In this document: in pieces, positions 2,864-18,275 of the stretch
Layout: the number at the start of each line of letters is the position of its first letter
How positions within the stretch are numbered: position 1 is the first letter of the stretch
Notes under the pieces: generated by a model
What the model was told of the DNA's origin: nothing
Databases searched by the model: none
Seen by the model: only the letters and a program-made list of their open reading frames with translations
Position numbers and translations under genes: made by a program
IMG/VR virus record: IMGVR_UViG_3300025936_000018
DNA length: 32,331 bases
Reading direction: 5' to 3' (one strand)
Source: a virus
Taxonomy: Duplodnaviria; Heunggongvirae; Uroviricota; Caudoviricetes

Positions 2864-3148
2864 ATGCAGAAGCCGCCAACGGGGCGGCTCCGGCCGTTCC
2901 GTCTCGAAGAGGTACCTCTCGACGTTCGCCTCCGCGCGGCGAAGCACGCGCGCGTGCGCGAACTGCCGGACGACGAGACCGATCCACGCGATCGGCTGCT
3001 CGCCGCGCTCGCGGCGCCAGCGTTCGATGAAGAGCGCGAGAAGCTGGTGCGCGCGGCGAACGCGCCGTCGGATCGCGTCTACTGGATCTCGGCCGCAGCG
3101 TGGGCGAAGGTCATGGGCGACTCGGCGTGGGCGAAGGTGATGGGATGA
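2864..3148 (+). CDS. Hypothetical protein, 94 aa
   Basis: GGAGG before ATG 2864; stop overlaps RNase H start (ATGA); C-terminal part of track ORF 2387..3148. Confidence 0.55.
   Translation: MQKPPTGRLRPFRLEEVPLDVRLRAAKHARVRELPDDETDPRDRLLAALAAPAFDEEREKLVRAANAPSDRVYWISAAAWAKVMGDSAWAKVMG
3098..3144 (+). repeat. Tandem duplication, 27-bp period (AWAKVMG x2)
   Basis: gcgtgggcgaaggtcatggg 3098-3117 and gcgtgggcgaaggtgatggg 3125-3144, 19/20 identical. Confidence 0.85.
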
Positions 3149-3729
3149 CGTGGCACATCTGGACGGACGGGTCCTGCGTCAACGCGTCCGCAGCTCCGAG
3201 CACGACGCCGAAGGGCGGCGTCGGCTTCGGCGGATGGGCCGCCATCGTCGAGCACGGATCGCAGGGGTTTGTGTTGCGCGGCCACGTCGCCGAGACGACG
3301 AACGTCGTCATGGAGCTCGTCGCTGTGATCGAAGGTCTCCGCGCGGTCCCGAGCGACGGGTGCGCCGTCGTGCACACCGATTCGACCGTGATTCTGTCCG
3401 TCCTCGACCGCTGGCAGAAGCGTTCGCCCATGCTCGGGAAGCACGCGGATCTCTGGGTCGAGCTCGGCGCCGAGTTCGACCGTCTGCACGTGTCGATCTC
3501 GATGGTCGAGCGCGGCATGCGCGACCCGCTCCACAAGCGCGCGCACGCGATCGCCGGCGCCGAGGCGAAGGCGCTGCTTCACATCGCGAGCGGCCGGATC
3601 CCGTCGAAGGCGACGCTGCTCGACCCCGAAGATCGCCGGATCCTCGGCCAGCAGTTCCGCCGCGAGGTTCGAGCGTGGCGCGAGCGCCACGAGCGCGTGA
3701 ACGCTAAGCCTCTCCCGTCCAGTCGATAG
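3145..3729 (+). CDS. rnhA: Ribonuclease HI family protein (atypical fourth acidic residue)
   Basis: WTDGSC, GFGGWAAIV, TTNVVMELVAVIEGL, VHTDS, HADLW motifs; C-terminal HKRAHAIA where NxxADxLA is usual; ATG 3145 coupled to upstream stop. Confidence 0.82.
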   Translation: MTWHIWTDGSCVNASAAPSTTPKGGVGFGGWAAIVEHGSQGFVLRGHVAETTNVVMELVAVIEGLRAVPSDGCAVVHTDSTVILSVLDRWQKRSPMLGKHADLWVELGAEFDRLHVSISMVERGMRDPLHKRAHAIAGAEAKALLHIASGRIPSKATLLDPEDRRILGQQFRREVRAWRERHERVNAKPLPSSR

Positions 3730-4366
3730 AACTCGCGTTGCAGTCGCAGTCGCGGTCGACGTAGACGAACGCGCGCCGGCCGGGATCTTGGCCGTGCCGC
3801 TGCCGGCGGCTCATGATCGACGGTACGACGTCGTCATGGTCAACGAGGGAAGGCACGGTCGCGAGCGGGTCGATGCCGCGAGATCGGAGGAAGCGTCCCG
3901 CGATCTCGTCGTCGGCGACGAACCGCGGCGGGTAGTTCTGCGCATCGACCCACGCAACGAACTCTCGAGCTATCCACGCCGGCCATCCGACCGCGACTGC
4001 CGGCAGCCAGTGCGCGTACTCGAGCTCGGCCCACGACGAGCCGCGCTCGCACGCCTTCTGGACGGCGAGACGGTGCCGCGGCGGGTTGCCGGTCACGCAG
4101 AACACGATGACGCGGTCGGGGCGCGCGTCGATCGCTGCTTGAGCTGCGGCGACGAAGCCGTCGCAGAGCGTCGCGTCATCCTGGATGACGATTAGGTGCG
4201 AAGCCTCAGCCGGAGCGGTCCGGATGCACTCGCGATAGGTGCGCCACGGGCTCTTGACAGGGTCGTCCGGCGCCGGGTCGAAGCAGACGCGCCCGTTCGT
4301 CTTGAGCGCGAGATCCTCGGCGAGATGGGCCCGCCGAGGGTGGCTCTGAATGACGACGTCTAGGAC
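3704..4366 (-). CDS. GT-A fold glycosyltransferase; no canonical start codon for the full domain
   Basis: Frame open upstream of track ORF 3704..4105: LDVVIQSHPRR...SPWRTYREC...HLIVIQDDATLCDGF...ADDEIAGRF...TVPSLVDH; in-frame TGA shortly upstream with no ATG/GTG/TTG in between; GGAG 8 nt before GTC at 4366. Confidence 0.75.
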   Translation of the reverse strand, partial: VLDVVIQSHPRRAHLAEDLALKTNGRVCFDPAPDDPVKSPWRTYRECIRTAPAEASHLIVIQDDATLCDGFVAAAQAAIDARPDRVIVFCVTGNPPRHRLAVQKACERGSSWAELEYAHWLPAVAVGWPAWIAREFVAWVDAQNYPPRFVADDEIAGRFLRSRGIDPLATVPSLVDHDDVVPSIMSRRQRHGQDPGRRAFVYVDRDCDCNASSIDWTGEA

Positions 4367-5598
4367 GGTTCGATCTCCAGCGGTTGCAATGCGAGCTCAA
4401 CCAGTTCGGCGACCTCGCGATCGCGGACAGGCTCGGAGTCGTCGTCGTCCGAGAGAGCCGCTGCCGCGCCGCTCGAGCGCGCGTAGAGCTCGGCGAGCGT
4501 TCCGCCATCATCGGTGGATTCGCCGAGCCACTCGGACGCCTCCGCAGCGTTCATCGGCCCGAATACGGTGGGACCGATCGCGCCGTCCGCGGCGCGCGAG
4601 ACGCAGCGGCCGGGGCGGATCGCCGCCGGCGCGAGATCGCCGAGCTCGTCGTTCGTGGTGATGAGCGCGAGCACGCGAAGTCCCTGACCGATCATGCCGT
4701 CGACGACGTTGAGCAGCCGCGAGAGTCCCTGCCCGTACTTCTCCTTCGCGTTGGCGGCGAGCAGCTCGCCAGTGTCCTCGAGAATCAGGATGCGCCACTT
4801 GTCGCCGGCCTCCGCGACGACGTCGCCGGACGGCTCGTGAATCACGTCGTAGCTGTCGGAGAGCAGCACGTCGATCATGTACGACGGGCGATCGACGAAG
4901 AACACGTCCGGGTCGGTGATGTAGTGGAACTCCGCCCACGAAGCCCACTCGGACGCGAGCGCACGCAGCGCCCACGTCTTGCCGCAGCCGGGCGGCCCCT
5001 GCCAGAGAAGCAGCTGGCCGTCGCGGCCGGGCTCCGTCCACGCCATGAGCGCCTCGAGCTCGGCGCGGACGTCGCCCGGGTAGTTGCGTGAGATGGCCTC
5101 CCAGCCGGCCGCTTCGATTCGGCGCAGCCTCGAGGTCGCTCCGAACTGGCCACACGTCCAGAACGTGATCGGCACGCGGCTGTCTTCGCCGGTCATGAAC
5201 GACGGCGGTAGCGCCGTGCGGAACGCTGAGAGCGTCGGCGCGATGTCCGAGTGGTTGAGCGCCGCGATGTGCACGTGGGCCCAGCCGCCGCGAAGCATGA
5301 CGAGCGCGAGCGATCCGTCCTCGGTCCGGAAGACCGCGGCGCTGCCGTCGCGGAACATCGCGTTCGTGACGTCGAGCGCCATAGCCTCGGTCGGCCACTG
5401 ATCGCTCATGAAGTTCGCGACCCCGGCACCGAGAGCCTCCGCGTAGAAGTACCGCTCGGCCGGCGACAGGCGCGCCATGTCGAGCACCGGCAACGTGCCG
5501 ACCGGGGCGACGCCGGATGCCGTGAGCGTGTCGCGCAGATGGCGGCGCCGCTCAGCGATCGAGGGCAGCGCGCGCCGGACCGTGACCGGCCGGTTCAT
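4360..5598 (-). CDS. AAA+ ATPase resembling actinobacterial DUF5925-associated ATPases
   Basis: Walker A GPPGCGKT, Walker B ILILED, SRLLNVVDG, ITTN, arginine finger RPGRC; ATG abuts protease stop. Confidence 0.85.
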   Translation of the reverse strand: MNRPVTVRRALPSIAERRRHLRDTLTASGVAPVGTLPVLDMARLSPAERYFYAEALGAGVANFMSDQWPTEAMALDVTNAMFRDGSAAVFRTEDGSLALVMLRGGWAHVHIAALNHSDIAPTLSAFRTALPPSFMTGEDSRVPITFWTCGQFGATSRLRRIEAAGWEAISRNYPGDVRAELEALMAWTEPGRDGQLLLWQGPPGCGKTWALRALASEWASWAEFHYITDPDVFFVDRPSYMIDVLLSDSYDVIHEPSGDVVAEAGDKWRILILEDTGELLAANAKEKYGQGLSRLLNVVDGMIGQGLRVLALITTNDELGDLAPAAIRPGRCVSRAADGAIGPTVFGPMNAAEASEWLGESTDDGGTLAELYARSSGAAAALSDDDDSEPVRDREVAELVELALQPLEIEPS

Positions 5599-8346
5599 CT
5601 AGCTCGCCTGCGCGAGCTCGCGGAGCTCGGAGAACCGCTCGAGCTCGTCCTCGGAGAGCTCCGCCTCGAACACCGGGATCCCCGCGGCGACGAGCGCGAG
5701 CACCTGATCGCCGTCCGCTCCGCACGCAGCGAGCGCCTGCTGGCGCGGAACCGGGAAGCCGGGCACGTTGACCGCGAGCAGCGCTACGAGCTCACCGTCG
5801 CGCCAGTCGCCCGACAGCTTCGACCCGCGCAGGAGCCGCACCTTGTCGGCCGGCGCGTCCGGCTGGAGAGCTCCGGCGACCCAGATGCCGTGCTCGTCCT
5901 CGCCGCAGCGCACATGCGCGACGACGGTGCCGGTGTGGTCGTAGTGGCTCGTCGCAGCCGACCGGCCGAGCCGAAGGTCGGCGTGCGGCGCGTCGAGCGT
6001 GATCTGGCCGCACGCGATCCTCGAGCCGTCCTCGACGACGATCTCGCCGAGGTGGAAGTACGCGTAGTCGGTCTTGGAGTGCGGCGCCGTGCGGCACACG
6101 GACGGGAAGCCGATGTGGCAGACGCCCCACGCGGCGGCGTGTCCGCTGATCCGACCGTCGTCATCGACGGTGATCGCGGTCGGCTCGGCGAAGTTCGGGT
6201 TCTCGAACCACTCCGCCGGCGGGCGCTCCGGCACGAGGCCGGCCGCCGCGGCGGTGAGAGCGTCTCCCGACGACGACTCCGAGACCGACGCGTACTGGCG
6301 AAGGTGCTCGACGCACTCCTCGTATGTGCCGGTGAAGCGCACATCCTCGGCGTTGAGGTAGTTCGCGACCCGCCAATTCTCGCCGTCATCGGAGAGGATG
6401 TTCGGAACGAACTCGCTCTGCTCGGACTCGACCGCAGCTGCGACGACCGTCTCGGTGCACTGCGTGCACTCTTCGACCGTCCATCCGCCCTGCTGCGTGA
6501 CCGTCCAGAACGCGGGGTTCGCGCCGGCGACGAGCGAGTCGCCGACCGCGATCTTCGCGACGCCGAACGCCGGGAACGGGCAGACCGTGGTCATGCCGAT
6601 CTCGGCGCTGAGCACGACGGCGATCGTGTCCTCGTTGTAGACGTCGAGAATCGACTGGCCGACAGCGGAGCCGCCGTTGGCTGGCTGCCACTTCCCGTCG
6701 TTGTCGAGCTCGCCGATCCAGTTGCCGTCCTCGTCGAACCAGTCCGACCGGGGGCCGGTGATGTAGTCGCCGATGGCGAGGTCGACCGAGTTGCCGCGGA
6801 GCGTCTCGTCGCCGACGAGCCGGCTGATCTCCGAGCCGTACTCGCCGGTGTCGAACACGCCCTTGCCGCGGATGAGTCCCGCGGCATCGTCGCGCCAGAT
6901 GTCGTCGACGCGGCCGGCGACCTGAGCTCCGACGTGGCCGCCCTCGCTCGTCTCGATCATGGCCATGAGCGTGAGCGGCAGCTCGCGCCACGTGATCGAG
7001 CCGGGCGCGAACGCGCGCCCGTCGGAGGTCAGCTTGCCCTCCGGAGCGAGGATCGCGCTCCATGCCGTCGGTCCCTCGGGCGCTGCGGTCGATGCCGCCG
7101 GCGCGGCCGGCGTGCGCGGCGAAGGATTGCGCGCCGGCATCCTCGAGCCCGGCTGGTGCGCCTCGGGCAGCGTCGCCTCGACCTCGTCGGCGACCGCTGC
7201 GAACACGAGCCGACCGATGCCGGCAAGCTGAGCGATTCCGGTGCGCATAGCGGCGTCGCCGTCCGGCGTCTCGGGCGCGACCTCGATCATGCCCTTCTCG
7301 ACCGGCACCCACTCGGACGGGTCGGAGACGATCGGCTCGTTGTCGTCGCCGACCGTGATCGGCGCGACGTAGTAGTCGCCGTCGCCGCAGCCGATGAGCA
7401 CCTTGTCGAGCCGGATCGCCGCGTCGACGACGTGCGGCATGTAGCCGTATTCGTCTCCGTCTCCCCGCGGCAAGTCCATCTCCGCGAGCGCGTCGTTCAC
7501 GTCGCAGATCAGGTCGCGGAAGCCGTCCTCCGGCGCCCACGCGACGTCGCCGACCGCGGCCGTGATCGTCTCGGGCGCGGCGAGCTCGTCCAGCCAGAGC
7601 GCAGCTGCCATCTCGAGCAGCGACTCGTCGGCGTCGGGCCCAAGCTGCGCGTACGCGAGCGCGTGCGCAGCGGCGCGCTTCTGGACGTCGACCAGCTCGA
7701 CCGGGTTGAAGTCGCCGCCCATGCCGGCGTAGACCTCGGTGCCGTCCTCGCCGTTGGCGTAGAAGATGTCGAGTCCGTGCTCGAGCGCGAACGCGATCGA
7801 CGCCTCGGCCACGGCTTCCCACGGCGCCTTGAGCGAGTCGTAGCCGTACTTCTTCGCGGCCTTCGCGTAGTAGTCGGCGACCTTCGTCTTGATCTCGGCG
7901 ATGTCGGAATCGGCCACGTCCTTGACGCCGCCGCGCGCGCCGGAGAGCGCGCCGGCGACCGCGGTGATCCCGCCCCAGTTCGCCTGGAGCTTGCCGTCGA
8001 CCGGCTCGGCGAAGCCGAGGCCGTAGTCGTCGAAGTTCTCGCCGTCGCCGCGCTCGAGGAAGAACGCCTTCGCGTACTGCGCGTTCGGCTTCTCGGTGGC
8101 GCCGGACCACTCGCGCACCGCCTTCTCCGCTGCGGTGGCGTCCCACTTCGCGTCGCGATCGCCGAGCGTCAGCGTCGTCGATCCGGAGACGGCGAGCTCG
8201 CCGCCCGCGCGCGCCTCGCGGCGCTGCTCGAGCACGGCTACGAGGTCCGCGCTCTGCTGCGTCCGCTTGACGGGGCGGCTTCCGTGAGCGCCCGACCGGA
8301 GCGCCGACCGGCGGCGCCTCGCACCTCTTCCACGATGAGTGGCCAT
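5599..8346 (-). CDS. Capsid maturation (prohead) protease, multidomain
   Basis: GGAGGAGG SD; core APEGKLTSDGR...GGHVGAQVAGRVD...RGNSVDL (His and Ser candidates); C-terminal GHAAAWGVCH...HYDHTG...LSGDWR...AVNVPGFP block as in actinophage proteases; between MuF and capsid. Confidence 0.82.
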   Translation of the reverse strand: MATHRGRGARRRRSALRSGAHGSRPVKRTQQSADLVAVLEQRREARAGGELAVSGSTTLTLGDRDAKWDATAAEKAVREWSGATEKPNAQYAKAFFLERGDGENFDDYGLGFAEPVDGKLQANWGGITAVAGALSGARGGVKDVADSDIAEIKTKVADYYAKAAKKYGYDSLKAPWEAVAEASIAFALEHGLDIFYANGEDGTEVYAGMGGDFNPVELVDVQKRAAAHALAYAQLGPDADESLLEMAAALWLDELAAPETITAAVGDVAWAPEDGFRDLICDVNDALAEMDLPRGDGDEYGYMPHVVDAAIRLDKVLIGCGDGDYYVAPITVGDDNEPIVSDPSEWVPVEKGMIEVAPETPDGDAAMRTGIAQLAGIGRLVFAAVADEVEATLPEAHQPGSRMPARNPSPRTPAAPAASTAAPEGPTAWSAILAPEGKLTSDGRAFAPGSITWRELPLTLMAMIETSEGGHVGAQVAGRVDDIWRDDAAGLIRGKGVFDTGEYGSEISRLVGDETLRGNSVDLAIGDYITGPRSDWFDEDGNWIGELDNDGKWQPANGGSAVGQSILDVYNEDTIAVVLSAEIGMTTVCPFPAFGVAKIAVGDSLVAGANPAFWTVTQQGGWTVEECTQCTETVVAAAVESEQSEFVPNILSDDGENWRVANYLNAEDVRFTGTYEECVEHLRQYASVSESSSGDALTAAAAGLVPERPPAEWFENPNFAEPTAITVDDDGRISGHAAAWGVCHIGFPSVCRTAPHSKTDYAYFHLGEIVVEDGSRIACGQITLDAPHADLRLGRSAATSHYDHTGTVVAHVRCGEDEHGIWVAGALQPDAPADKVRLLRGSKLSGDWRDGELVALLAVNVPGFPVPRQQALAACGADGDQVLALVAAGIPVFEAELSEDELERFSELRELAQAS

Positions 8347-8489: not shown

Positions 8490-8690
8490 ATGAGTTACTA
8501 CGCAAGAGCCATCGAGAGCCTCACGACGAGCGATCCGCGCCATGTCGAAGCGTGGATGCGGCTCGAGTTCGGAACGCTCGATCATCTGACCGCGGAGCGG
8601 TTCGAGTCGGAGGTCTGCATCGCCAACGCCTGCATCGCTGAGGCCGGCATCGAGGAGAGCGAGGCGCTCGCCGTCTCGTACGGCCTCTGA
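8490..8690 (+). CDS. Small hypothetical protein
   Basis: GAAGGGAGA SD, 66 aa, DPRHVEAWMRLEFGTLDHL; TGATG coupling to next gene. Confidence 0.75.
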   Translation: MSYYARAIESLTTSDPRHVEAWMRLEFGTLDHLTAERFESEVCIANACIAEAGIEESEALAVSYGL

Positions 8691-9304
8691 TGAGCGCCAT
8701 CGAGCTCGAGAACACCGCAGCGGCGTTCGCCGACGCGCGGAACCCGCAGACCTCGATCTTCGAGGTCCAGACGTGTTCGCGCTGTGGCGGAAGCGGCCGG
8801 TATTCCTACAACGCTTTCACGCAGGACCGCTGCTTCAAGTGCGGCGGCCGCGGCTGGACGTACACGAAGCGCGGCGCCGCTGCCGCGGCGAAGCTGACCG
8901 AGCTCCTCTCGAAGCGAGTCCGCGATCTGCAACCCGGCGATCGCATCCGGTACGCCGGCATCCCCGGCTTCTCGGGCGGCGGATGGGCCACGATCGAGAA
9001 GGTCGGCCGCGACACCGGCGAGATGGAGTTCGGCTCGCGGGTGGTCGACTTCGACTACGAAGCGAACGAGCGCTGGGGCTATCAGTGCAACGGATACAGC
9101 GCTGCCGGTGTCGATCCCGACTCGCTCGTTCGGGTCGCGCACACGGCAGACGAGAAGGCAGCCGCTCGAGCCGCCGCGCTTGACCAGCACGGAAGAGCTC
9201 CAGATCGTCTCGCCGAGACGCCTGGACGATCCAGAGACCGCGAAGCTGATTCGGGCGCAGCTGAAGAAGGCGTTCCCGGGCCAGAAGTTCACGGTCAGGA
9301 GTAG
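8690..9304 (+). CDS. Protein with DnaJ-type CxxCxGxG zinc finger
   Basis: CSRCGGSG and CFKCGGRG; last ~40 aa overlap next gene out of frame. Confidence 0.7.
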   Translation: MSAIELENTAAAFADARNPQTSIFEVQTCSRCGGSGRYSYNAFTQDRCFKCGGRGWTYTKRGAAAAAKLTELLSKRVRDLQPGDRIRYAGIPGFSGGGWATIEKVGRDTGEMEFGSRVVDFDYEANERWGYQCNGYSAAGVDPDSLVRVAHTADEKAAARAAALDQHGRAPDRLAETPGRSRDREADSGAAEEGVPGPEVHGQE

Positions 9305-9824
9305 CCGGTATTCCGGCGGCTCGAGCATCAGCATCGACTGGATCGACGGGCCGACCACGAAGCAGGTTGACGACGTGACCGCCGTCTTCGCGGGCTCGCG
9401 CTTCGACTCGATGATCGACCTCAAGACGTACAACCGGCACTGGCTCAATCCGGACGGCACAGTGAGCATCGCTTACGCCGGCGGCCAGGGCTCGACGCTG
9501 GAAGAGGTCTACGGCAGCGCGCCGACGCCGAACTCGGAGCTGGTCTCGATCGGCGCCGATCACATCATGACCCAGCGGGAGACGTCGCCCGAATGGAAGG
9601 CAGCGATCTTCGCCGCATTCGGCGAGATCCTCGGCCGCGACCTCGGCGACCCGACGGGAAGCTATTCCACGTGGGATCAGCTAGTCCCGCTGAAAGTCGA
9701 CTGGAGCGACGGGAGGCTGTACCACATGGTCGAGACCGACACGGAGCGGCTCTCGACGGTCTTTCACCAGTTCACGAGCTATCGGCAGGGCGGCGACTGC
9801 TCGACCGATGCGGTCGCATCATGA
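9180..9824 (+). CDS. LPD29-like (large polyvalent protein-associated domain) protein
   Basis: ETAKLIRAQLKKAFPGQKFTVRSSRYSGGSSISIDWIDGPT...SRFDSMID matches remembered LPD29 consensus; TTG 9180 start is uncertain. Confidence 0.72.
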   Translation: MTSTEELQIVSPRRLDDPETAKLIRAQLKKAFPGQKFTVRSSRYSGGSSISIDWIDGPTTKQVDDVTAVFAGSRFDSMIDLKTYNRHWLNPDGTVSIAYAGGQGSTLEEVYGSAPTPNSELVSIGADHIMTQRETSPEWKAAIFAAFGEILGRDLGDPTGSYSTWDQLVPLKVDWSDGRLYHMVETDTERLSTVFHQFTSYRQGGDCSTDAVAS

Positions 9825-10345
9825 GCGTCATCGAACAAGCTAGACGCGACTGGACGAACGTCGGCGCCGAGGTTGTCGAGCGGATCGGCGGCCGCGACGC
9901 GGCGAGCAGCGAAGCCGAAAGCCTCGAGTGGCAGAGCGTTCCGATCGGCCGGCCGCTGACGGTCGGCTTCATGCCCGGCGAGGCGATCAAGGCTGCGATC
10001 AGCGAGCTCGCCATCCCGAAGGTGAGCGCGATCGCGATCGGATCGCTTGAGCGGCCCGGCGCGACCGGCGACGACGACGGCTGGTACCCCGGCTTCTACG
10101 GCATCGAGGGGAACTATCGCAACTGCGTCGTCCGCGTCTACATCATCGACGGCGGCGAGTCGCTGATCCCGATCTTCGCCGACGTCTGGGAGATCGACGA
10201 GACCGACGATCCGGCGCTGACAGCTCTGCGGCAAGCCGGAGCTCGAGCTCGCGCGCGCGGCGAGGAGCCGATCGTGGACATGCCAACCGCGGCCGAAGCG
10301 AACGCGCGCGTGGCGGAGCTCGGCCGGCGCAAGGCGTATCGGTAA
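9821..10345 (+). CDS. Hypothetical protein
   Basis: ATGA overlap at 9821, MSVIEQARRDW..., high GC3; C-terminal part of track ORF 9593..10345. Confidence 0.7.
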   Translation: MSVIEQARRDWTNVGAEVVERIGGRDAASSEAESLEWQSVPIGRPLTVGFMPGEAIKAAISELAIPKVSAIAIGSLERPGATGDDDGWYPGFYGIEGNYRNCVVRVYIIDGGESLIPIFADVWEIDETDDPALTALRQAGARARARGEEPIVDMPTAAEANARVAELGRRKAYR

Positions 10346-10356
10346 GCCGCACGTCC

Positions 10357-10371
10357 TGATATATTTATACC
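10357..10371 (+). promoter_or_regulatory. Second TGATATATTTATA extended -10 / operator candidate
   Basis: 13-bp identity to 8448-8460; followed by GAAGGGAGA SD as at 8476. Confidence 0.75.
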
Positions 10372-10397
10372 GTCATCACTAGCGGAAGGGAGACCGC

Positions 10398-11087
10398 ATG
10401 ACACGCAGAGAGAGGCTCGAGCGTAGAGCCGAGAAGAGGCGCGACTGGGCAGGAAGTGCCAGCGCGCGATCAGACGCCGCGTACGAAGCGGAGCACGCGA
10501 TCGGCGATCGCATTCCGATGGGCCAGCCGATTCTCGTCGGCCATCACTCGGAGCGGAGAGCTCGCCGCGACGTCGAGCGGATGCAGACGCTCGCGAGCCG
10601 GAGCATCGAAGAGGGCGCGAAGGCCGAGCGCCACGCAGCGGCCGCGGACAGCATCGAGCGGCAACTCGAGGTCGCGATCTTCGATGACGACGAGGACGCG
10701 GTCGAGCAGCTGCGCGCGAAGGCCGACCGGCTCGAGGCGCAGCGCGACGAGCGGAAGCGTGCGAACGCCGAGTACCGGAAGGAGCACAAGGCCGAGCTCG
10801 CCGCGATGACGCCCTACGAGCGGTCGCAGGCAGTTCCGTATCCGACCTACTCGCTCACGAACCTCGGAGCTCGAATCCGAGACGCGCGGCAGCGCGCCGA
10901 CCGGCTCGAGCGCGAGAAGGCGATGGTCGCCGCAGGCGATCGCGGCCACGGCCGGCAGATGGAGTCCCGGTACCCGGGCACCTGCGCCGACTGCGGCGGA
11001 GAGATCAGCCGCGGCGAGCAGATCGTCTGGTTCCGTCTCACGCGCGAAGCGACGCACGCGACTTGCCCGGCAAAGGACGAGTCGTGA
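10398..11087 (+). CDS. DUF3560-like protein with C-terminal Cys/His zinc ribbon
   Basis: RRERLERRAEKRRDWA...IPMGQPILVGHHSERRARRD signature; YPGTCADCGGEI...HATC. Confidence 0.82.
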   Translation: MTRRERLERRAEKRRDWAGSASARSDAAYEAEHAIGDRIPMGQPILVGHHSERRARRDVERMQTLASRSIEEGAKAERHAAAADSIERQLEVAIFDDDEDAVEQLRAKADRLEAQRDERKRANAEYRKEHKAELAAMTPYERSQAVPYPTYSLTNLGARIRDARQRADRLEREKAMVAAGDRGHGRQMESRYPGTCADCGGEISRGEQIVWFRLTREATHATCPAKDES

Positions 11088-11578
11088 CGGCCGCGGAGTA
11101 CTTCTGGATCGAGTACGAGAACGACGACATGGGCCCGTTCGTGGAGCGCGAGCTCGCGGAGATGGCGCTCGGCTCGGACGAGGGCCAGATATTCACGAGC
11201 GGCGACGGCGGTTGCACGCCGATCGTTGCGCTCGTGAGCCCCGCGTGGCAGTCGACGGCCGTCGAGTGGCGCGGAGTCGGTCTCGGCGAGCAGCGCGATC
11301 TCACGCGGCGATCTCTTGCTCGAGCGATCGCCGGACCCAATTCGGTCACCGTCAACTGCGTGCACGGCCAGCATGACGAGTGCCACGGATACGTCGCGCC
11401 GCTCGTCTACAGCGCCACGCGGCCGTGCGGATGCGTCTGCCACGACGCCGGCGGCCGCGACTTCCATGCCGGGCTCGAGCGGGCCCGGAGGTCGTACTAC
11501 AGCGAGCGCGAGCCGGCGGAGATCGGCGGCGCTTTCGACGGCTTCACCGTCACATCCGACGCGGATCCGGGGCTCTAG
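11084..11578 (+). CDS. Hypothetical phage protein
   Basis: GTGA overlap; Cys/His cluster (CVHGQHDECHG, CGCVCH); ends GGAFDGFTVTSDADPGL. Confidence 0.7.
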   Translation: MTAAEYFWIEYENDDMGPFVERELAEMALGSDEGQIFTSGDGGCTPIVALVSPAWQSTAVEWRGVGLGEQRDLTRRSLARAIAGPNSVTVNCVHGQHDECHGYVAPLVYSATRPCGCVCHDAGGRDFHAGLERARRSYYSEREPAEIGGAFDGFTVTSDADPGL

Positions 11579-11784
11579 TGGCCGCCGGCGTGCGATGCAC
11601 GGCATCCGGCGCGGAGCGCTCCGTCACGTCCGAGCAGTGGATCTCCGCCAAAGGTGCGTGCCCGGATTGCGGAGCAGAGGTCGAGTTCATGGTCCGAGCC
11701 AACGACCTCTCGCCGCGCTGCAAGGTGAAGGTCCACCGGGCGCCCGCGGGCGTCATCCCGCGCCCGTACGGAGCAGCGCCATGA
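11578..11784 (+). CDS. Small Cys-containing hypothetical protein
   Basis: TAGTG overlap at 11578; KGACPDCGAEV; stop overlaps next ATG. Confidence 0.55.
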   Translation: MAAGVRCTASGAERSVTSEQWISAKGACPDCGAEVEFMVRANDLSPRCKVKVHRAPAGVIPRPYGAAP

Positions 11785-12074
11785 TCGAGGAGCTCGAGAT
11801 GACCACGGCGCTAGGCTTCGCAGCGATGGAGACCGCGCAGTGGAACTACTTCACCGTGACGAACGAGGACGGCTCGCCGCGGCTGGTCGTGCGTCGGAAC
11901 GGGCCCGACATTCAGCTGCTCACGGCGAACGGCTGGGTCGATCGGCCGCAACTCCTGACGCGGTTCCAGGATGCCGGCTTCCTCGAGCAGACCGATCTCG
12001 CCGGCGCGCAGCGCTCGGCGACGTCGATCGGCGGCGGCCTCCAGTGGCCGCGCGAGGACCTCGCAGTTGGCTGA
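11781..12074 (+). CDS. Small protein, candidate immunity protein 1
   Basis: ATGA overlap; WNYFTVTNEDGSPRLVVRR...NGWVDRPQLL; immunity role is inference from position. Confidence 0.65.
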   Translation: MIEELEMTTALGFAAMETAQWNYFTVTNEDGSPRLVVRRNGPDIQLLTANGWVDRPQLLTRFQDAGFLEQTDLAGAQRSATSIGGGLQWPREDLAVG

Positions 12075-12321
12075 GCTCAAGATCATCGGACAGCAGGGGC
12101 CGACGCGGTTCCTCGTAGACGCGGGGAAGGTCGCGGACGGCGAGCCGAATGCTGGTCTGCCGGCGGCGCGGGTCTACGACGTCGTGACTGACTTCCTCGG
12201 CGAGCCGACGGCGATCGGCGCGATCACCGCGCACTCGCCCGGCTGGGACGAGCCGACAGCGCCGGACGAGCTGCTTGAGACTGTCCGTGAGCGCGTCGCC
12301 GCGCTGCTGCCGGCGGCCTAG
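12067..12321 (+). CDS. Small protein, candidate immunity protein 2
   Basis: TTG 12067 with GAGGA SD; MAELKIIGQQGPTRFLVDAG...HSPGWDEP; stop overlaps MuF stop in CTAG. Confidence 0.65.
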   Translation: MAELKIIGQQGPTRFLVDAGKVADGEPNAGLPAARVYDVVTDFLGEPTAIGAITAHSPGWDEPTAPDELLETVRERVAALLPAA

Positions 12322-15300
12322 TCGTTCTGGCTGTTGCCGCCGCCGAGCTCTCGGTACGTGTCGACCATGTGCCAGCGGATCTCGAGCTCGTCGAGCAACT
12401 CGCGGAGGTGCGTGCCCTCCATCATCGTCTGCTCGGAACGGGCGAGCCATTCGTCCGCCTGTTCTTGAGCTCGCGCGACGGCGTCCTCAGCCGCCGCGAG
12501 TGCGCTCGTGTTCGACGTGCCCTTGACGGCCTCGCGTAGCGCGTCGAGCTCTCGCTGCTTCTCGGCGAGGTTGTCGCGCATGATGTTCGCCATCGCGGTC
12601 GCGCCCTGGATGCGCTCCTGCTCGCGCTCGGCGGAGAAGATGACCTGGTCGATGTCGCTGAGCGCGACGCCGCCGTGGATCTGCGCCTCGGCGTATGAGC
12701 CGTACGTCATGTCCGCGACGTCGCCGTTCGCTTCGACGGGGTTCGCGCCGCCCCACCACGAAGTCAGGCTCGGATCGTTCAGCGGCGAGGGGATGATCTC
12801 TCCGTCTCGGCCCGGTCCGAGCGAGTCGATGAGCGAGAACGTCGTCCGTTCGTTCGTCTCCGGCTTGAGGTTGACGATCAGGTCGCCGTACTGCTCGACG
12901 CCGTGTGTCTCGTCGGCGGAGCCGGCGAGGTACCCGTAGATCGGCCTCTCTTCGTCCGGCAGGCTCTTCGGGTAGCCGAACATTCGCTCTTCGGCTCGAG
13001 CTCGCAGATCGGCGTCGAGCATTCCCTTCGACGTGCCGGTCTCGAACTGACTCTTGAAACGGCCTTCCTTGAGGATCTTCTCGAGCGTGTCGGTGGTGAC
13101 GCGGATGCGCACCTGCGCGTCGGCCACGGCCTTCTTGATCGACGTGAGAGCTTCGGCCTTCCACTCCTCAAGCCGTTGCGCTCGCTCCTCGGGCGTACCG
13201 ATCATCTTCCATCTGCCGCCCTGCGTCTGCGCTTGCCGCTCGGCGACGTAGTTGATGTTCTCCATCGTGCGGTCCATCGTGAGATTGTTCGCACCCGGGA
13301 CGATGTCCTGCACCCTCAGGACGCGCATGACGTCGGCGCCAACCGGAGCATCATGCGTCACGCGCTGGCCGATGCCGAACGCGCCAGCCGGGACAGGATT
13401 CTTCGACTGCTCGGCCGCCATCTCGTTCCACAGCCGAAGCCGCTCCGCCGGGTCGGTCGACAGCTGGAACGCGCGATACTGCGGGTGCAGCGACGTCTTG
13501 AGCTCGAACGTCCGCGGCGTGTGGAACTGGAGCTCGAACCGCTGCCCGTTCTTCTCGAATACGCCGTTGATCCCCTGGTAGTCGGCGTTGCCCCAATAGT
13601 TCTTCAGCTTGATCTGCGTGTAGCCGTCCTTCTCGAGCCGCGCGAGCGTCGTCTGGACGCCGTTCGCGTAGCTGCCGTCAGGGAACGTCATCGTGTAGCG
13701 GAGCGTGTCGTTGATCGACGCCGAGACCTCCGCGACGGTCGCGCTCGGATCAGCCAGCCGAGCGTCGGCGAGGTCGCCGGTGATCTTGCGGACGAGCGAG
13801 GGGTTCTCCTTGACGGCGTTCTCGAGGCCTTCCATCTTTCCGCCGGCCGTGTCCGCGATGCCAGAGAGCTCGGCGGTGACTTCCGGCTCGGCCGCAGCCG
13901 CGTCGCTGATCATCGCCTTCGCGGAATCGAGGACCTCCGGCGGGATCGGCTCGCCAGCGACCGACGCCGCGTACGCCTTCGCTTCGTCCCAGTCAGTGAA
14001 CAGACGCACCTCGGTCTCGGCCGGCGCGTTCTGCGCCATGAACACGATGTCGGGCCGGCCGTACTCCTCGAACTTCCAACCTTCCGGCGCGTACTCGTCG
14101 ACGAACTTCATCCGGCCGACAACCCGGAATCCCTCCTGCTCGTACATGTCCGGCAGGAAGCCGTCGTACGCGTCGAGCGTCGCCGCGCCTTCCTCCTGCA
14201 CCGCCTTGCGGACGGCCTGCTGGCCGGCGCCCTTGATGCCGCCCGGATTGCGGAATACGTTCTGGAGGTCGTGCTCCGGCGTGACGACGAAGCCGGACTC
14301 GCCGTCAGGCGAGATGAAGACCTTGTCCCGGGCTAGCTCTTCTGGGGTGTGGACGGTGAGGAAGCCGGGGCGGGCGTTTTCTGCGAGTGCGGAGTTGAAC
14401 GACTCGTAGTCGGTCGTTTCGGCGAAGGAAACGACGGGTCGTCCGGGTCCCGATCCGGCGGAAGGTGCCGAGAGAGGCCTGATGCCGGCTTCTGCATGAC
14501 CAGATGTTAGCCCACCGGCGTCGGTGAGCTCCTCGCAGTTGACCGGCAGGATCTCCTCTGCGGCCGGCGGCGTCCAGCCGGCCGGATTGGCCGGATCATC
14601 GGCCGCGGTCAGATGGTTCGTCGCGAGCTGCTCGAAGCGGAGCGCGGCGATGTCGCCGGCGCGCTCGAGGATCGGCTGCAAGATCGCGGCAAGCCTCGGC
14701 TCGAAGTCGTCGATGCGCTTGTGGGCGGCACGCAGAACGCGGTTGTGATGCTCGAGCGAGAAGCGCTGCTCGCCGGCCGCGTCGATGTTGTCGCCGGCGG
14801 TGTCGCTCTTCCGCTCGCCCGAGTACTCGAGCGTGCACCGGCAGTTGATCACCTCGCCGGCCTCGCCGTCCGGGTCGCCGGGGAAGCGGAGCTCGGCGCC
14901 GCCGACGTCGAACAGCCCGTCGAGTTGAACGGTCTGGCCGTCCAAGCCTTCGTAGTCCTCGTGGCGCGGATACGTGGCGCCGGGCGCGGTCATCCACGTC
15001 TTCGTCGCCGTCGCGCCGGCAACATCGGCCGCGATCTTGGCCGCGGCGAGCGAGCCGCCGTTCACAGCGCCGGCGAGCTCGGTTCGCGCGATCATCGTCG
15101 CGCGCACGTTGCTCGCCTCAGCCATGTGCGCCCGGATCGCCTTCGCCGTATCGGGAACCGACAACCCCTGCTCGTGCGCGTAGTTGATCACGTTCATGAC
15201 GTCGTCCTGCGTCGTGCGCGAGATGCCGACGATGTGCTGGCCTGCTCTCGAGATGACGTCCGCCGCGAGCGGATTCGTGATGTCCCAGGTGAGCCCGGCC

Positions 15301-16229
15301 TGCTCGAGCGCCGGCGTCATGACCGCCTTCACGAACGCCTGCCGGATCGGGTCGGTCTTGCCGCGCAGCTCCGCGGGGAGACAGAACGGTTCGGCGGCGG
15401 CGACGAGCGCGGCCGCGGTGATCGGCAGCGCTCCGGTGAACGGGATCGCGATGATCTCGGTGTCGCCGCGGACGACGAGGAGCTCGTCGAAGTGGAGCGC
15501 GTTGCCGACAGCCGACTCGGGGTAGCCATCGGCCGGCTCGCCGTCGACGTCGGTGACGGTGAGATGCGCCTCGAAGCCGTGGTCGTGCGAGTAGTCGATC
15601 TCTGCCGCGATGAGCGCTTCGCAGACGTCGGTGCGGAGCTCCACGAGCCCGCGCACGTCGGGCAGCAGAATGCCGACGCCGGGCGGGTCGAACGCGCCGT
15701 AGCCGCCGATTACGCCCTCGAGCGGCGCGTGGGTGGCTGCCACGATGCGCAGCGCGTCCACGATCGGCTCGAGCTCGCCCTCGATCTCGCCGAGATACGC
15801 GAGCGTGACGTGGAGGTTCTCCGGAGGGTCGCCGCCGGGCGCCGCGATCGCTTCAGCTTCGAGCGGCCGCGGCTTGACCGCGATCATCGTCGAGAGCGAC
15901 GTGACGCCGGGCGCCGCAGAGACGAGCGGCGGCGTCACCTCGGCGAGGTCGCTCCACTGCCACTGCTCCGGAAGCACGCCCGGAAGTCCTTCGGCCCACT
16001 CGTCGCAGACCATCGCCGGGGAGACCAGCGTGTCGAACATGCCGCAGCGCATCGCCGTGCCGGCGCCGTAGAACGAGCACGTCGCGCACGCGCGGTCGTG
16101 GTTGGCCGTCTCCCGGTAGTGCACGAGCGGCGGCAGTTCGCCCTCGCCGTCGGCGATCGTGGCAGCAGCGGCTCCCACAGGCTCGCGCAGGCCATCCCAC
16201 GCGGCCCAGACCAACTCGCGGTCGCTCAT
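12318..16229 (-). CDS. MuF-family minor head protein fused to several enzymatic/toxin-like domains
   Basis: MuF motifs RATMIARTE, TKTWMT, DGQTV, FPGDP, EVINCRC; 2H motifs LHVTL/AHLTV; RelA-like ELQFHT; YAEAQIHG; directly downstream of portal. Confidence 0.88.
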   Translation of the reverse strand: MSDRELVWAAWDGLREPVGAAAATIADGEGELPPLVHYRETANHDRACATCSFYGAGTAMRCGMFDTLVSPAMVCDEWAEGLPGVLPEQWQWSDLAEVTPPLVSAAPGVTSLSTMIAVKPRPLEAEAIAAPGGDPPENLHVTLAYLGEIEGELEPIVDALRIVAATHAPLEGVIGGYGAFDPPGVGILLPDVRGLVELRTDVCEALIAAEIDYSHDHGFEAHLTVTDVDGEPADGYPESAVGNALHFDELLVVRGDTEIIAIPFTGALPITAAALVAAAEPFCLPAELRGKTDPIRQAFVKAVMTPALEQAGLTWDITNPLAADVISRAGQHIVGISRTTQDDVMNVINYAHEQGLSVPDTAKAIRAHMAEASNVRATMIARTELAGAVNGGSLAAAKIAADVAGATATKTWMTAPGATYPRHEDYEGLDGQTVQLDGLFDVGGAELRFPGDPDGEAGEVINCRCTLEYSGERKSDTAGDNIDAAGEQRFSLEHHNRVLRAAHKRIDDFEPRLAAILQPILERAGDIAALRFEQLATNHLTAADDPANPAGWTPPAAEEILPVNCEELTDAGGLTSGHAEAGIRPLSAPSAGSGPGRPVVSFAETTDYESFNSALAENARPGFLTVHTPEELARDKVFISPDGESGFVVTPEHDLQNVFRNPGGIKGAGQQAVRKAVQEEGAATLDAYDGFLPDMYEQEGFRVVGRMKFVDEYAPEGWKFEEYGRPDIVFMAQNAPAETEVRLFTDWDEAKAYAASVAGEPIPPEVLDSAKAMISDAAAAEPEVTAELSGIADTAGGKMEGLENAVKENPSLVRKITGDLADARLADPSATVAEVSASINDTLRYTMTFPDGSYANGVQTTLARLEKDGYTQIKLKNYWGNADYQGINGVFEKNGQRFELQFHTPRTFELKTSLHPQYRAFQLSTDPAERLRLWNEMAAEQSKNPVPAGAFGIGQRVTHDAPVGADVMRVLRVQDIVPGANNLTMDRTMENINYVAERQAQTQGGRWKMIGTPEERAQRLEEWKAEALTSIKKAVADAQVRIRVTTDTLEKILKEGRFKSQFETGTSKGMLDADLRARAEERMFGYPKSLPDEERPIYGYLAGSADETHGVEQYGDLIVNLKPETNERTTFSLIDSLGPGRDGEIIPSPLNDPSLTSWWGGANPVEANGDVADMTYGSYAEAQIHGGVALSDIDQVIFSAEREQERIQGATAMANIMRDNLAEKQRELDALREAVKGTSNTSALAAAEDAVARAQEQADEWLARSEQTMMEGTHLRELLDELEIRWHMVDTYRELGGGNSQND

Positions 16230-16232
16230 GGG

Positions 16233-18275
16233 TTAGCGCCCGTTCTTCGCTGCCGCGAGGAGCCCCTCCACCTTGGCGGCGAATGTCGGCGGCAGCGGGT
16301 CGGGCCGCTCGTCATAGAGCGTGCGTGCGGCGTGGCGCTCGATCGTGTCCGCGATGGACTCGGCCGCGGTGTCGTCGCGCACGCCGAGCTCGCGGAGCAC
16401 GGCCAGCATGATCTCGTGCGTCGCGGAGACGAGCTCGAGCTCGCGCGCGCCGCCGAGCAGCCGCCGGACGGTCGTGCGTCCGAGTTTCGCCGCGACAAGG
16501 CCGTTCGGATTGCCGTCGATCAGCGCGAGCGCTTCATCGTCGCGTCGTGCGAGCTGCCGAAGGCGCGCGCCGGCGGCTTCGCGCGCGCGCAGCTGCGCAT
16601 AGACGGCCGCGCCTTCGATCGTGGTGCCGAGAGATCCGACGATCGTTTCGGTGCCCGCCTCCTGGCCTCCGGCCGGCGGTCCCGTTTGGGCCTCCGCTCC
16701 GGTCTCGGGCCCGCCGGCCGGCTGCTCGTTCCCGCTGTTCGAGACGACACCCGGAGTGGGCTCGACCGAGCCGGCGCCGACTCGCGGCACGCCGTCCCAC
16801 GCGAGAGACGAATCGCCCGTCGCGATGCCGACGATCCGTGCCCTCTCGTCCTTGGTCGGCGCGTCGTCCTCGCTGAAAGCTGTCTCGCGGCGAAGCGCCT
16901 CGTCGCCGATGACCGCCTTGTCGTGCAGCTGGATCGCGGTCTTCGTTCGGTCGGGATGGTTGATCACCTTCGTCGCGTCGTACGCGATCACGTACTTGTC
17001 CCAGTCGGCCATGTTGAGCTCTTCGCGCAGGTACGGCCCGAGATAGGCGGCCGTCAGGTCCTCCACGAATCCGTCGGCGACCGGCTGGATGTGCGCCTGC
17101 CACGTCTGGTCGTCGATGATCCAGGCGTTCCAGTGGTTCGTGTCGGTGAAGCCGAGCAGCGCCTCGACCGGCATATCGAGCGAGATCGCGAGCCGGCGAA
17201 TCGCCTCGTTGCGCAGGCCGACCTCCGGGTAAATCTGGAGCGGGTCCTGGATCTGCATGTGGTAGACGAGATCGGCGAGCTTCATCCCGTCCGGGACGCG
17301 CACGCGCAGAAGGATCGGCGCCACCGCGGCGGCGGTGCCCTCGTCGGCGATCGCCGTCGTGATCGCCTCGGTCATGTCCTCCATGAGCGGGTCCTCGAGG
17401 ATGTCCTCGTCCGGAGACGGCTCGTCGGGTCGCGTCGTGATGCGGTCGTCGATGAAGAGGAAGCCGGCCGTCCAGAGTCTCGAGCGGAGCCGCGCGCGGA
17501 TCACCTGCGTCAGAAGGACGAGCTCCTCGAGGATGTCGAGCACGCCCTCGGTCGTGGAGTCCGGCAGTGCCGAGAAGCGCGGGTGCGGCCGATGGAGCCG
17601 GTACGCGACGGCGGTGCCGACGCCGGCGGGCCCCTGGTTGTTCCCTTCCTTGTCGACGACCGGCTCGAATGAGTCGTCCGGCGCCGGGCGGAAGAGCGTC
17701 GCCGGCATCACCGGCGCCGTGAACCGCGTGTAGTTGCCGTCGAGCAGCCGGATCTCGTCGGTCGAGAGCATCTCCCACTGCTCCTGATTCGTCTCGGGGT
17801 TGATCGAGACGAAGAGGATGGCCTCGCCGACGAGGAACGCGAGCAAGCCGTAGGCGCGCTGGAGCCCGGTGCGGCCGATGCCGCCCGGATCCTTGATCCG
17901 CTCGAACGCCTCGATCACCTGCTCGTTCGTCGTCGGAATGAGGTCGCCGTTCTCGTCCTTTTCCGCGGCGAAGAGCAAGAGCTGCGAGAGCGCTCGAGCG
18001 TAGAACTGCGCTGCGAACTTGAACTCGCCGACGAGGTCGAAGTAGCCGAACGCCCGGATCTGCCACGGCATGATCAGGCGGCGCAGATAGGTCGCCTGTC
18101 CGTGGCGGACGAGCGCGCCGGCCGCGGTCATGTTCTCGCGATAGGACTCCGGCAAGTCCTTCTCGACGAGAGCGAGCTCGGCCTTCAGCGCGTCATGTGT
18201 CGGGCCGACGCGATGCGACATCACCACGCGAGCGCGCGGCACGGGCGAACGACGGCGGCGGCGGAAGAGGCCCAA
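16233..18275 (-). CDS. Portal protein
   Basis: WQIRAFGYFDLVGEFKFAAQFYARALS, RLHRPHPR...DS, IRRLAISLDMPVEALLG...NHWNAW resemble actinophage portals; position upstream of MuF/protease/capsid. Confidence 0.82.
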   Translation of the reverse strand: MGLFRRRRRSPVPRARVVMSHRVGPTHDALKAELALVEKDLPESYRENMTAAGALVRHGQATYLRRLIMPWQIRAFGYFDLVGEFKFAAQFYARALSQLLLFAAEKDENGDLIPTTNEQVIEAFERIKDPGGIGRTGLQRAYGLLAFLVGEAILFVSINPETNQEQWEMLSTDEIRLLDGNYTRFTAPVMPATLFRPAPDDSFEPVVDKEGNNQGPAGVGTAVAYRLHRPHPRFSALPDSTTEGVLDILEELVLLTQVIRARLRSRLWTAGFLFIDDRITTRPDEPSPDEDILEDPLMEDMTEAITTAIADEGTAAAVAPILLRVRVPDGMKLADLVYHMQIQDPLQIYPEVGLRNEAIRRLAISLDMPVEALLGFTDTNHWNAWIIDDQTWQAHIQPVADGFVEDLTAAYLGPYLREELNMADWDKYVIAYDATKVINHPDRTKTAIQLHDKAVIGDEALRRETAFSEDDAPTKDERARIVGIATGDSSLAWDGVPRVGAGSVEPTPGVVSNSGNEQPAGGPETGAEAQTGPPAGGQEAGTETIVGSLGTTIEGAAVYAQLRAREAAGARLRQLARRDDEALALIDGNPNGLVAAKLGRTTVRRLLGGARELELVSATHEIMLAVLRELGVRDDTAAESIADTIERHAARTLYDERPDPLPPTFAAKVEGLLAAAKNGR

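Follow-up and report, generated by a model that had tools for sequence, protein, structure and literature searches.

A predicted MuF-anchored polyvalent head protein with four enzyme domains encoded by an uncultured phage

Polyvalent proteins, composed of 2-15 domains and encoded together with packaging genes, are predicted to enter the host along with the DNA (Iyer, Burroughs, Anand, de Souza, Aravind, 2017, J Bacteriol, PMC5512222), and this prediction was restated for ADP-ribosyltransferases (ARTs) by Iyer et al., 2022 (PMC9503650). In the former study MuF is presented as a hub, and 2H-MuF and RelA/SpoT-MuF fusions, as well as GNAT domains located next to ARTs, are discussed. Other MuF proteins carry a single toxin: those of temperate phages, encoded with immunity genes, were described by Jamet et al., 2017 (PMC5576092), and Apk2 is composed of MuF and a (p)ppApp synthetase (Paulet et al., 2025, PMC12226406; Bartoli et al., 2023, is cited for the Apk2 MuF toxins). 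MuF is also listed among the delivery domains of the clade of the synthetase SaEAS (PMC12691689). In phage T4, Alt and the internal proteins are packaged in the head; the prohead protease trims them at a short sequence motif, and they are injected together with the DNA (PMC9503650). Here we describe P0001, a protein of 1303 amino acids (aa) encoded in a 32,331-nt stretch of phage DNA (the window, whose numbering is used throughout), in which a MuF core is combined with four enzyme domains.

The window corresponds to bases 5765-38095 (reverse strand) of a 96,219-bp IMG/VR virus record, a phage genome with direct terminal repeats, rated 100% complete and with a GC content of approximately 68%. 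The data directly support the identities of the P0001 domains, the integrity of the catalytic motifs (motif alignment showed the catalytic residues to be kept in all four enzymes), the position of the gene in the head module, and an architecture with modular cargo that recurs in relatives. We regard P0001 as probably a MuF-anchored polyvalent minor head protein, which would be cleaved by a prohead protease, ejected with the DNA and act early in the host.

The P0001 gene and its domains

The P0001 gene (12318..16229, -) is a single, stop-free open reading frame (ORF) of 1303 codons. Its third-position GC content is 0.89, as in the adjoining genes, and its ATG begins 3 nt past the stop codon of the portal protein gene (16233..18275, -; phrog_776, E 2.4e-85). 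The identical 1303-aa protein is recorded on three contigs. One of them is a separate 43.9-kb Logan assembly, in which the same portal gene lies upstream and the same pair of small convergent ORFs follows. Moreover, every domain junction of P0001 recurs in at least one other contig, among relatives originating from other samples. The initial annotation, made from the sequence alone, had described one 1303-aa frame with a Cys4 cluster, two H-x-T motifs of a 2H domain, a MuF core, and GNAT-like, RelA/SpoT-like and ART/DUF3626-like blocks, i.e., with enzymes on both sides of MuF. This layout was confirmed: the blocks had been placed to within a few tens of bases, the 2H enzyme precedes MuF, the GNAT, synthetase and ART domains follow it, and all four enzyme segments matched the proposed folds.

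The MuF head-protein core was located at aa 281-500 (14730..15389, -). PF04233 matches aa 343-467 with a segment score of 31 bits (cut-off 29.6), and comparison with PHROGs revealed phrog_2468 ('head morphogenesis', 3e-36), as well as phrog_2662 and phrog_859. The core is followed by a helical cassette ending H-L-T-A-A ... W-T-P-P (aa 501-568; 14526..14729, -), which was distinguished by its recurrence in relatives: it lies C-terminally to MuF in close relatives, and over 20 others have it at the N-terminus or interposed between domains. The cassette and linker (aa 480-600) have no Pfam family match.

The region spanning aa 771-952 (13374..13919, -) was recognized as a (p)ppApp synthetase of the Apk2/SaEAS type. 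In a PDB search it matched SaEAS (8VX3) with E 3.6e-17 as a single sequence and 2.7e-36 as a profile, the next structure being Tas1/Apk1 (6OX6; E 0.018), and no other synthetase (RelQ, RelP or a tRNA-modifying toxSAS) appeared at E <=1. The same region matches NF041399, the C-terminus of XopAD (4.5e-30), and is 34% identical to gp20, a MuF-Apk2-type protein of the S. pneumoniae phage phiARI0462. The invariant synthetase residues are kept, i.e., K807, K815, D841, R844 and E899-x-Q901-x-H903-T904 (E899-L-Q-F-H-T), with D841 aligned to the Asp whose mutation (D121A) inactivates SaEAS. P0001 thus carries, beside MuF, a synthetase domain of the RelA/SpoT superfamily with its synthetase motifs, the combination found in Apk2. 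Five relatives (P0181, P0031, P0032, P0033 and P0179) have a further Apk-like synthetase domain, which is more divergent, retains every catalytic motif and is placed directly after MuF or N-terminally to the Cys4 module.

The 2H phosphoesterase domain (aa 113-268; 15426..15893, -) is of the LigT/ThpR type. PF13563 scores 35.6 bits on P0001 (cut-off 27), PF02834 is also above its cut-off, and the motifs H140-V-T142 and H222-L-T224 are invariant, or nearly so, in 20 relatives. A profile built from these 20 relatives found the RNA 2',3'-cyclic phosphodiesterase 5H7E (ThpR) in the PDB at E 1.9e-10, followed by 1VDX and 1IUH, with viral NS2a and AKAP7 among the lower-ranked matches. With two H-x-T/S motifs and a family hidden Markov model match, the domain belongs to the LigT/ThpR branch of the 2H superfamily. 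Acb1 was absent among the PDB matches of the profile up to E 1, and membership in the Acb1 type was rejected because the nearest solved relatives are ThpR and LigT; degradation of signalling nucleotides is still a possible function of this domain.

The GNAT-fold acetyltransferase domain (aa 598-760, with the loop G667-A-G669 and Y696; 13950..14438, -) was identified by structure prediction. An AlphaFold (AF2) model of aa 595-765 had a predicted local distance difference test score (pLDDT) of 93.6, and its best 50 Foldseek matches in the PDB were all GNAT acetyltransferases (E from 2.8e-5; template modelling (TM) score 0.43-0.56). Among Swiss-Prot models the matches included RimI and YiaC. In a profile search against the PDB (YjaB, E 0.013), G667-A-G669 fell on the G-x-G acetyl-CoA loop of YjaB and the Y...GF motif was aligned. 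Y696 is invariant and the G-x-G loop is kept, so that both the fold and the acetyl-CoA pyrophosphate-binding loop of GNAT enzymes are present. No Pfam family, including the Pfam GNAT families, matched the segment, and the modelled domain is therefore taken to be a divergent branch. An initial Atlas feature search with this part was uninformative, and a word-indexed search for homologues gave 5, versus 3123 representative homologues obtained in an exhaustive search, many of them within proteins of 1000-5700 aa. Homologues in cultured phages carry acetyltransferase annotation, and in the MuF-type minor capsid protein gp4 of Microbacterium phage Caron the GNAT domain is the sole C-terminal cargo.

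The last enzyme is a SopF-type (DUF3626) ADP-ribosyltransferase (aa 1011-1200, with R1095-P-I-Y-G1099 and E1181; 12630..13199, -). PF12294 matches with E 5e-11 for the whole protein and 8e-13 for the segment (42.6 to 48.5 bits; cut-off 27). A profile of the DUF3626 domain found the SopF-ARF1 structures 7DN8 (4.7e-10) and 7DN9 (8.8e-9) in the PDB; the profile was required, as a single-sequence search of this part returned noise only. SopF is an ADP-ribosyltransferase with an I-Y-E triad (PMC10333799, PMC6682159). The conserved motifs of the domain are SQFET, RPIYG and Y-x-E-A-Q-x-H-G. R-P-I-Y-G and Y-x-E-A-Q-I-H-G align to SopF, and E1181, the catalytic Glu, corresponds in the alignment to the SopF Glu for which the NAD-bound crystal form 7DN9 has Asp. 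The region between the synthetase and the ART (aa 950-1015) has no family match. The protein ends with a tail rich in Ala, Glu, Arg and Leu (aa 1201-1303; 12321..12629, -), which is probably helical, with weak Pfam matches of coiled-coil type, and is also found C-terminally to the DUF3626 domain in relative P0181.

The N-terminus contains a Cys4 module (aa 33-78; 15996..16133, -), in which C48, C51, C62 and C75, together with Y38, R39, D66 and W78, are invariant across nine sequences (P0001 and 8 relatives). The Cys spacing and a C-terminal C-x-x-W resemble those of high-potential iron-sulfur proteins (HiPIP), and possibly the module is HiPIP-like, binding a metal or an Fe-S cluster. A profile of the module aligned all four Cys to HiPIP 1HLQ, a weak PDB match (E 0.19), and a language-model search led to viral Atlas clusters in which 11-12% of members contain PF01355. 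We treat this idea as a lead only, because Pfam HIPIP (PF01355) matches neither P0001 nor the genome and the AF2 model of aa 1-115 has a pLDDT of 44, unusable as a fold test. A tblastn search of aa 1-120 against cultured phages gave no match.

Relatives and gene neighbourhood

The search for MuF homologues with varying cargo, which the initial annotation had envisaged, revealed many metagenomic 2H-MuF relatives with differing cargo. A length-matched search found 33 other proteins related to P0001. Segment mapping and Pfam searches showed that in this family 2H-MuF is constant, the Cys4 module and the helical cassette are frequent, and the cargo is variable. Thus, P0178 (69% identical to P0001) carries Apk only, P0029 (80% identical) carries GNAT only and ends soon after it, P0180 carries a Zeta toxin with Apk and DUF3626, P0186 and P0187 carry ADPrib_exo_Tox with DUF3626, and in P0200 (1653 aa) DUF5925 and AAA domains are fused to 2H-MuF. 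The complete domain set of P0001 was found in none of these relatives. In P0179 and P0182 the MuF core is interrupted by an insert of approximately 300 aa (MuF segments of P0179: 596-698 and 1002-1111), possibly an intein or a domain inserted there.

Cultured phages have portals with no more than approximately 31% identity to this portal protein. These phages are, with few exceptions, actinobacterial, and the host of this uncultured phage is therefore probably an actinobacterium. Downstream of P0001 lies the capsid gene. A reverse cassette (8490-12321, +) splits the head module, separating the MuF gene from the head gene that comes next, a layout also present on the contig of P0178, where the order of genes is as in the window: portal, MuF protein, a reverse cassette with DUF3560, a protein of approximately 900 aa and a DUF5925-AAA ATPase. 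In the window this cassette includes genes for a Cys-rich zinc-ribbon-like protein (8690-9304, +), an LPD29 ('large polyvalent protein associated domain') protein (9108-9824, +) and a DUF3560 protein (10398-11087, +). It also contains two small ORFs of 97 and 84 aa (11781..12321, +), convergent with P0001, which are called as genes on the independent contig; the second overlaps the stop codon of the P0001 gene at its end. Neither ORF has a Pfam, PHROG or phage match. An ArdC-N/MPTase-PolyVal gene is present in the neighbourhood of relative P0186.

Other genes of the window include a DUF5925 and AAA ATPase gene in the head module (4360-5598, -), encoding the same two domains that are fused to 2H-MuF in P0200. 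The AAA gene is separated from the gene of the major head protein by an RNase H gene (3100-3729, +) and a glucosyltransferase-like gene (3704-4105, -).

Predicted processing and role in infection

A short motif, counted as [LIM][TV][AS]A and referred to as LTAA-like, occurs in P0001 in 5 copies versus 0.6 expected from 2000 shuffles, none of which reached that number. The copies are located at aa 102, 162, 270, 275 and 540, and all except that at aa 162 lie at domain borders: P-L-V-S-A-A between the Cys4 module and 2H (aa 102-106; 15912..15926, -), I-T-A-A-A-L-V-A-A-A, comprising two copies, between 2H and MuF (aa 270-279; 15393..15422, -), and H-L-T-A-A between MuF and the enzyme array (aa 540-544; 14598..14612, -). 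For P0001 and 27 relatives taken together (n=28), 62 copies were counted versus 16.6 expected, mostly around 2H and MuF. Of the head proteins tested (295-2130, 5599-8346, 12318-16229 and 16233-18275, all -), the capsid protein (at aa 139), the portal protein and a 915-aa protein also contain the motif, which was present in 0/5 non-head proteins.

The 915-aa head protein (5599..8346, -) is a candidate for the processing enzyme. Its prohead-serine-protease-like part (aa 694-900) matches phrog_18402 'head maturation protease' (1.4e-47) and phrog_859, reaches 0.92 in Atlas language-model features to the Mu-like_Pro, S80 and S77 clusters, and is flanked by LTAA-like copies at aa 697 and 885; in structure comparison the similarity to S78/S77 models was weak (TM 0.47-0.49). 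The LTAA-like motif may thus be a prohead-protease site, and from these sequence patterns we infer that P0001 would be processed there. The 915-aa protein itself seems to be a second multi-domain head protein, with a weak inorganic pyrophosphatase match at aa 290-350 (2PRD, E 0.003); the InPase domain is listed among the domains of polyvalent proteins by Iyer et al., 2017 (PMC5512222).

In the proposed mechanism, P0001 would be made together with the portal protein and enter the prohead through its MuF core as a minor head protein. The prohead protease would then cut at the LTAA-like sites near aa 104, 275 and 542, yielding four pieces inside the head, with the Cys4 module, the 2H enzyme, MuF, and the GNAT-Apk-ART array (approximately 760 aa), respectively. 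Ejected with the DNA, these pieces could act ahead of any phage gene expression: the 2H enzyme would destroy 2',3'-cyclic or 2'-5'-linked nucleotide or RNA ends (e.g., those of defence signals or cut tRNAs), the GNAT enzyme would acetylate and the ART would ADP-ribosylate a host protein, and the synthetase would turn ATP/ADP into (p)ppApp, stopping host metabolism. The turnover of SaEAS and Apk1 is approximately 10^5 per minute (PMC12691689), and an enzyme this fast could therefore have an effect even when only a few molecules are injected.

Several points weigh against this interpretation. The phage is uncultured, and packaging in virions, cleavage, injection, substrates and targets are what we infer. 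The LTAA-like motif was defined post hoc, after inspection of the data, one of its five sites in P0001 (aa 162) lies inside the 2H domain, and the Pfam S78 and S77 proteases are unmatched in the genome, a negative result that is not a proof of absence. Regarding the domains, the Cys4 module could not be assigned to a family, and the GNAT domain has no Pfam family match. The usual Arg of the ATP-binding R-x-K motif of the synthetase is replaced by Ala in P0001 and three relatives; therefore, its activity or substrate may differ. Finally, a very fast ATP-consuming synthetase would starve the phage too.

The alternatives are less well supported by these data. The sequence is of metagenome origin, and the long ORF could in principle be an assembly chimera, or separate genes fused by sequencing error; however, the coding signal is uniform along the ORF, and this explanation is very unlikely because the identical protein is present on three contigs, one of them produced by a different assembler with the same neighbouring genes, and all domain junctions recur in other samples. 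P0001 could also be a MuF polymorphic toxin of a temperate phage, delivered to non-lysogens to the advantage of the lysogen, with the two small convergent ORFs acting as immunity genes that protect the producer. Homology of its synthetase to Apk2 of S. pneumoniae prophages is consistent with this, as are the two unassigned ORFs abutting its 3' end. On the other hand, neither a tyrosine or serine integrase nor an HD_4/Aph1-type hydrolase was detected by Pfam in the complete 96-kb genome (which does not prove their absence), and the genes next to P0001 are convergent, leaving no co-directional immunity gene, versus two small genes after Apk2 in phiARI0462. Moreover, MuF is internal, with three enzymes C-terminal and one N-terminal to it instead of a single toxin, and we consider such a toxin quite improbable.

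A further explanation is that the enzymes are not injected and act in the producing cell or in the head, e.g., in late host shut-off or in the processing of DNA or RNA ends during packaging. The position of the gene suggests expression with the late head genes, which would suit this view, and ejection is a predicted step. However, a fused MuF domain and a gene whose place behind the portal gene is conserved typify head-internal proteins, injection is known for related enzymes packaged in the head, T4 Alt among them (PMC9503650), and assembly would suffer if a synthetase that depletes ATP were active in the producer at a late stage; this explanation therefore appears unlikely. An injected, MuF-anchored polyvalent protein thus stays the preferred reading. 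A more specific version of it is put forward tentatively, and it may well not hold in full: a phage in which neither lysogeny nor immunity genes are detectable would pack a processed polyprotein, whose LTAA code would be read by a protease embedded in a second giant head protein; the enzyme set released would include a HiPIP-like Fe-S module, and the (p)ppApp synthetase, once injected, would serve host take-over and not lysogen competition.

If true, P0001 would contain the first SopF-type ART with a bacterial target and would be the first example of a phage using alarmone synthesis as an immediate-early weapon. It is a compact and intact test case, and each enzyme prediction is directly assayable because the closest relatives (ThpR/LigT, RimI-like GNATs, Apk2/SaEAS and SopF) have known chemistry. 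It also connects research on (p)ppApp toxins with a phage seemingly devoid of lysogeny and immunity genes, and therefore the role of MuF-Apk proteins in lysogen competition may be questioned. The SopF-type ART, known from one effector of an animal pathogen, is here predicted to be placed in phage heads. Should the LTAA-like motif be a protease site, it would provide a simple rule for predicting the pieces released from such giant proteins.

Comparison with known systems

The likeness of P0001 to T4 Alt and the internal proteins is that of head-packaged, trimmed and injected proteins, as proposed here for P0001 from its sequence. There is no sequence relation between P0001 and these proteins, and in T4 a short N-terminal capsid-targeting sequence is used instead of MuF. 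Among solved structures, SaEAS of Streptomyces albidoflavus (8VX3) is the nearest in sequence to aa 771-952. Unlike this domain of P0001, it is a Sec-exported, stand-alone enzyme making both (p)ppApp and (p)ppGpp (PMC12691689).

P0001 shares with Apk2 the combination of MuF with a homologous adenosine 3'-pyrophosphokinase domain, and a location next to the portal gene. In contrast to P0001, Apk2 proteins have one C-terminal toxin and belong to temperate phages with the downstream immunity genes iapK and aph1; in phiARI0462 two small genes (gp19/gp18) follow Apk2, the second annotated as a metal-dependent phosphohydrolase. Downstream of P0001 no iapK/aph1 counterpart was found, and its synthetase is one of four enzymes and has Ala for the Arg of R-x-K. 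Likewise, with MuF internal (at aa 281-500, two modules before and three enzymes after it), several enzymes, and no integrase or Aph1-type hydrolase detected, P0001 falls outside the class of MuF polymorphic toxins.

The ART of P0001 belongs to the same Pfam family as SopF of Salmonella and shares with it R-P-I-Y and Y-x-E-A-x-I-H-G, including the catalytic Glu; it is without the N-terminal helical region of SopF. SopF is a type III effector, which is activated by eukaryotic ARF GTPases and modifies the V-ATPase. By this comparison, the predicted ART of P0001 would have to act on a bacterial target and be activated in a different way.

The closest resemblance is to polyvalent proteins. As in these, several effector domains (four catalytic domains, besides MuF and the Cys4 module) are joined in one polypeptide, which has a MuF head anchor and is encoded within the head and packaging module beside the portal gene, and the cargo varies between relatives. 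The domain types (2H, RelA/SpoT-type, ART and RimI-like GNAT) are shared as well, and a solo LPD29 gene lies nearby. P0001 carries a DUF3626 domain and, possibly, a HiPIP-like module; the main text of PMC5512222 mentions neither DUF3626 nor HiPIP, and no description of the helical LTAA cassette was found. New as well are the occurrence of a (p)ppApp synthetase in a genome in which integrases and Aph1-type hydrolases went undetected, and the enrichment of the LTAA-like motif at domain borders and in further head proteins. According to the initial annotation, the combination was not known to have been described, which stands for the exact six-domain set, not found elsewhere; the kind of protein, however, had already been described as polyvalent (PMC5512222). 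Judging from its domains, P0001 is thus predicted to be a polyvalent protein of a known class with a new domain set, in which the new elements appear to be the SopF-type ART and the possibly HiPIP-like Cys4 module.

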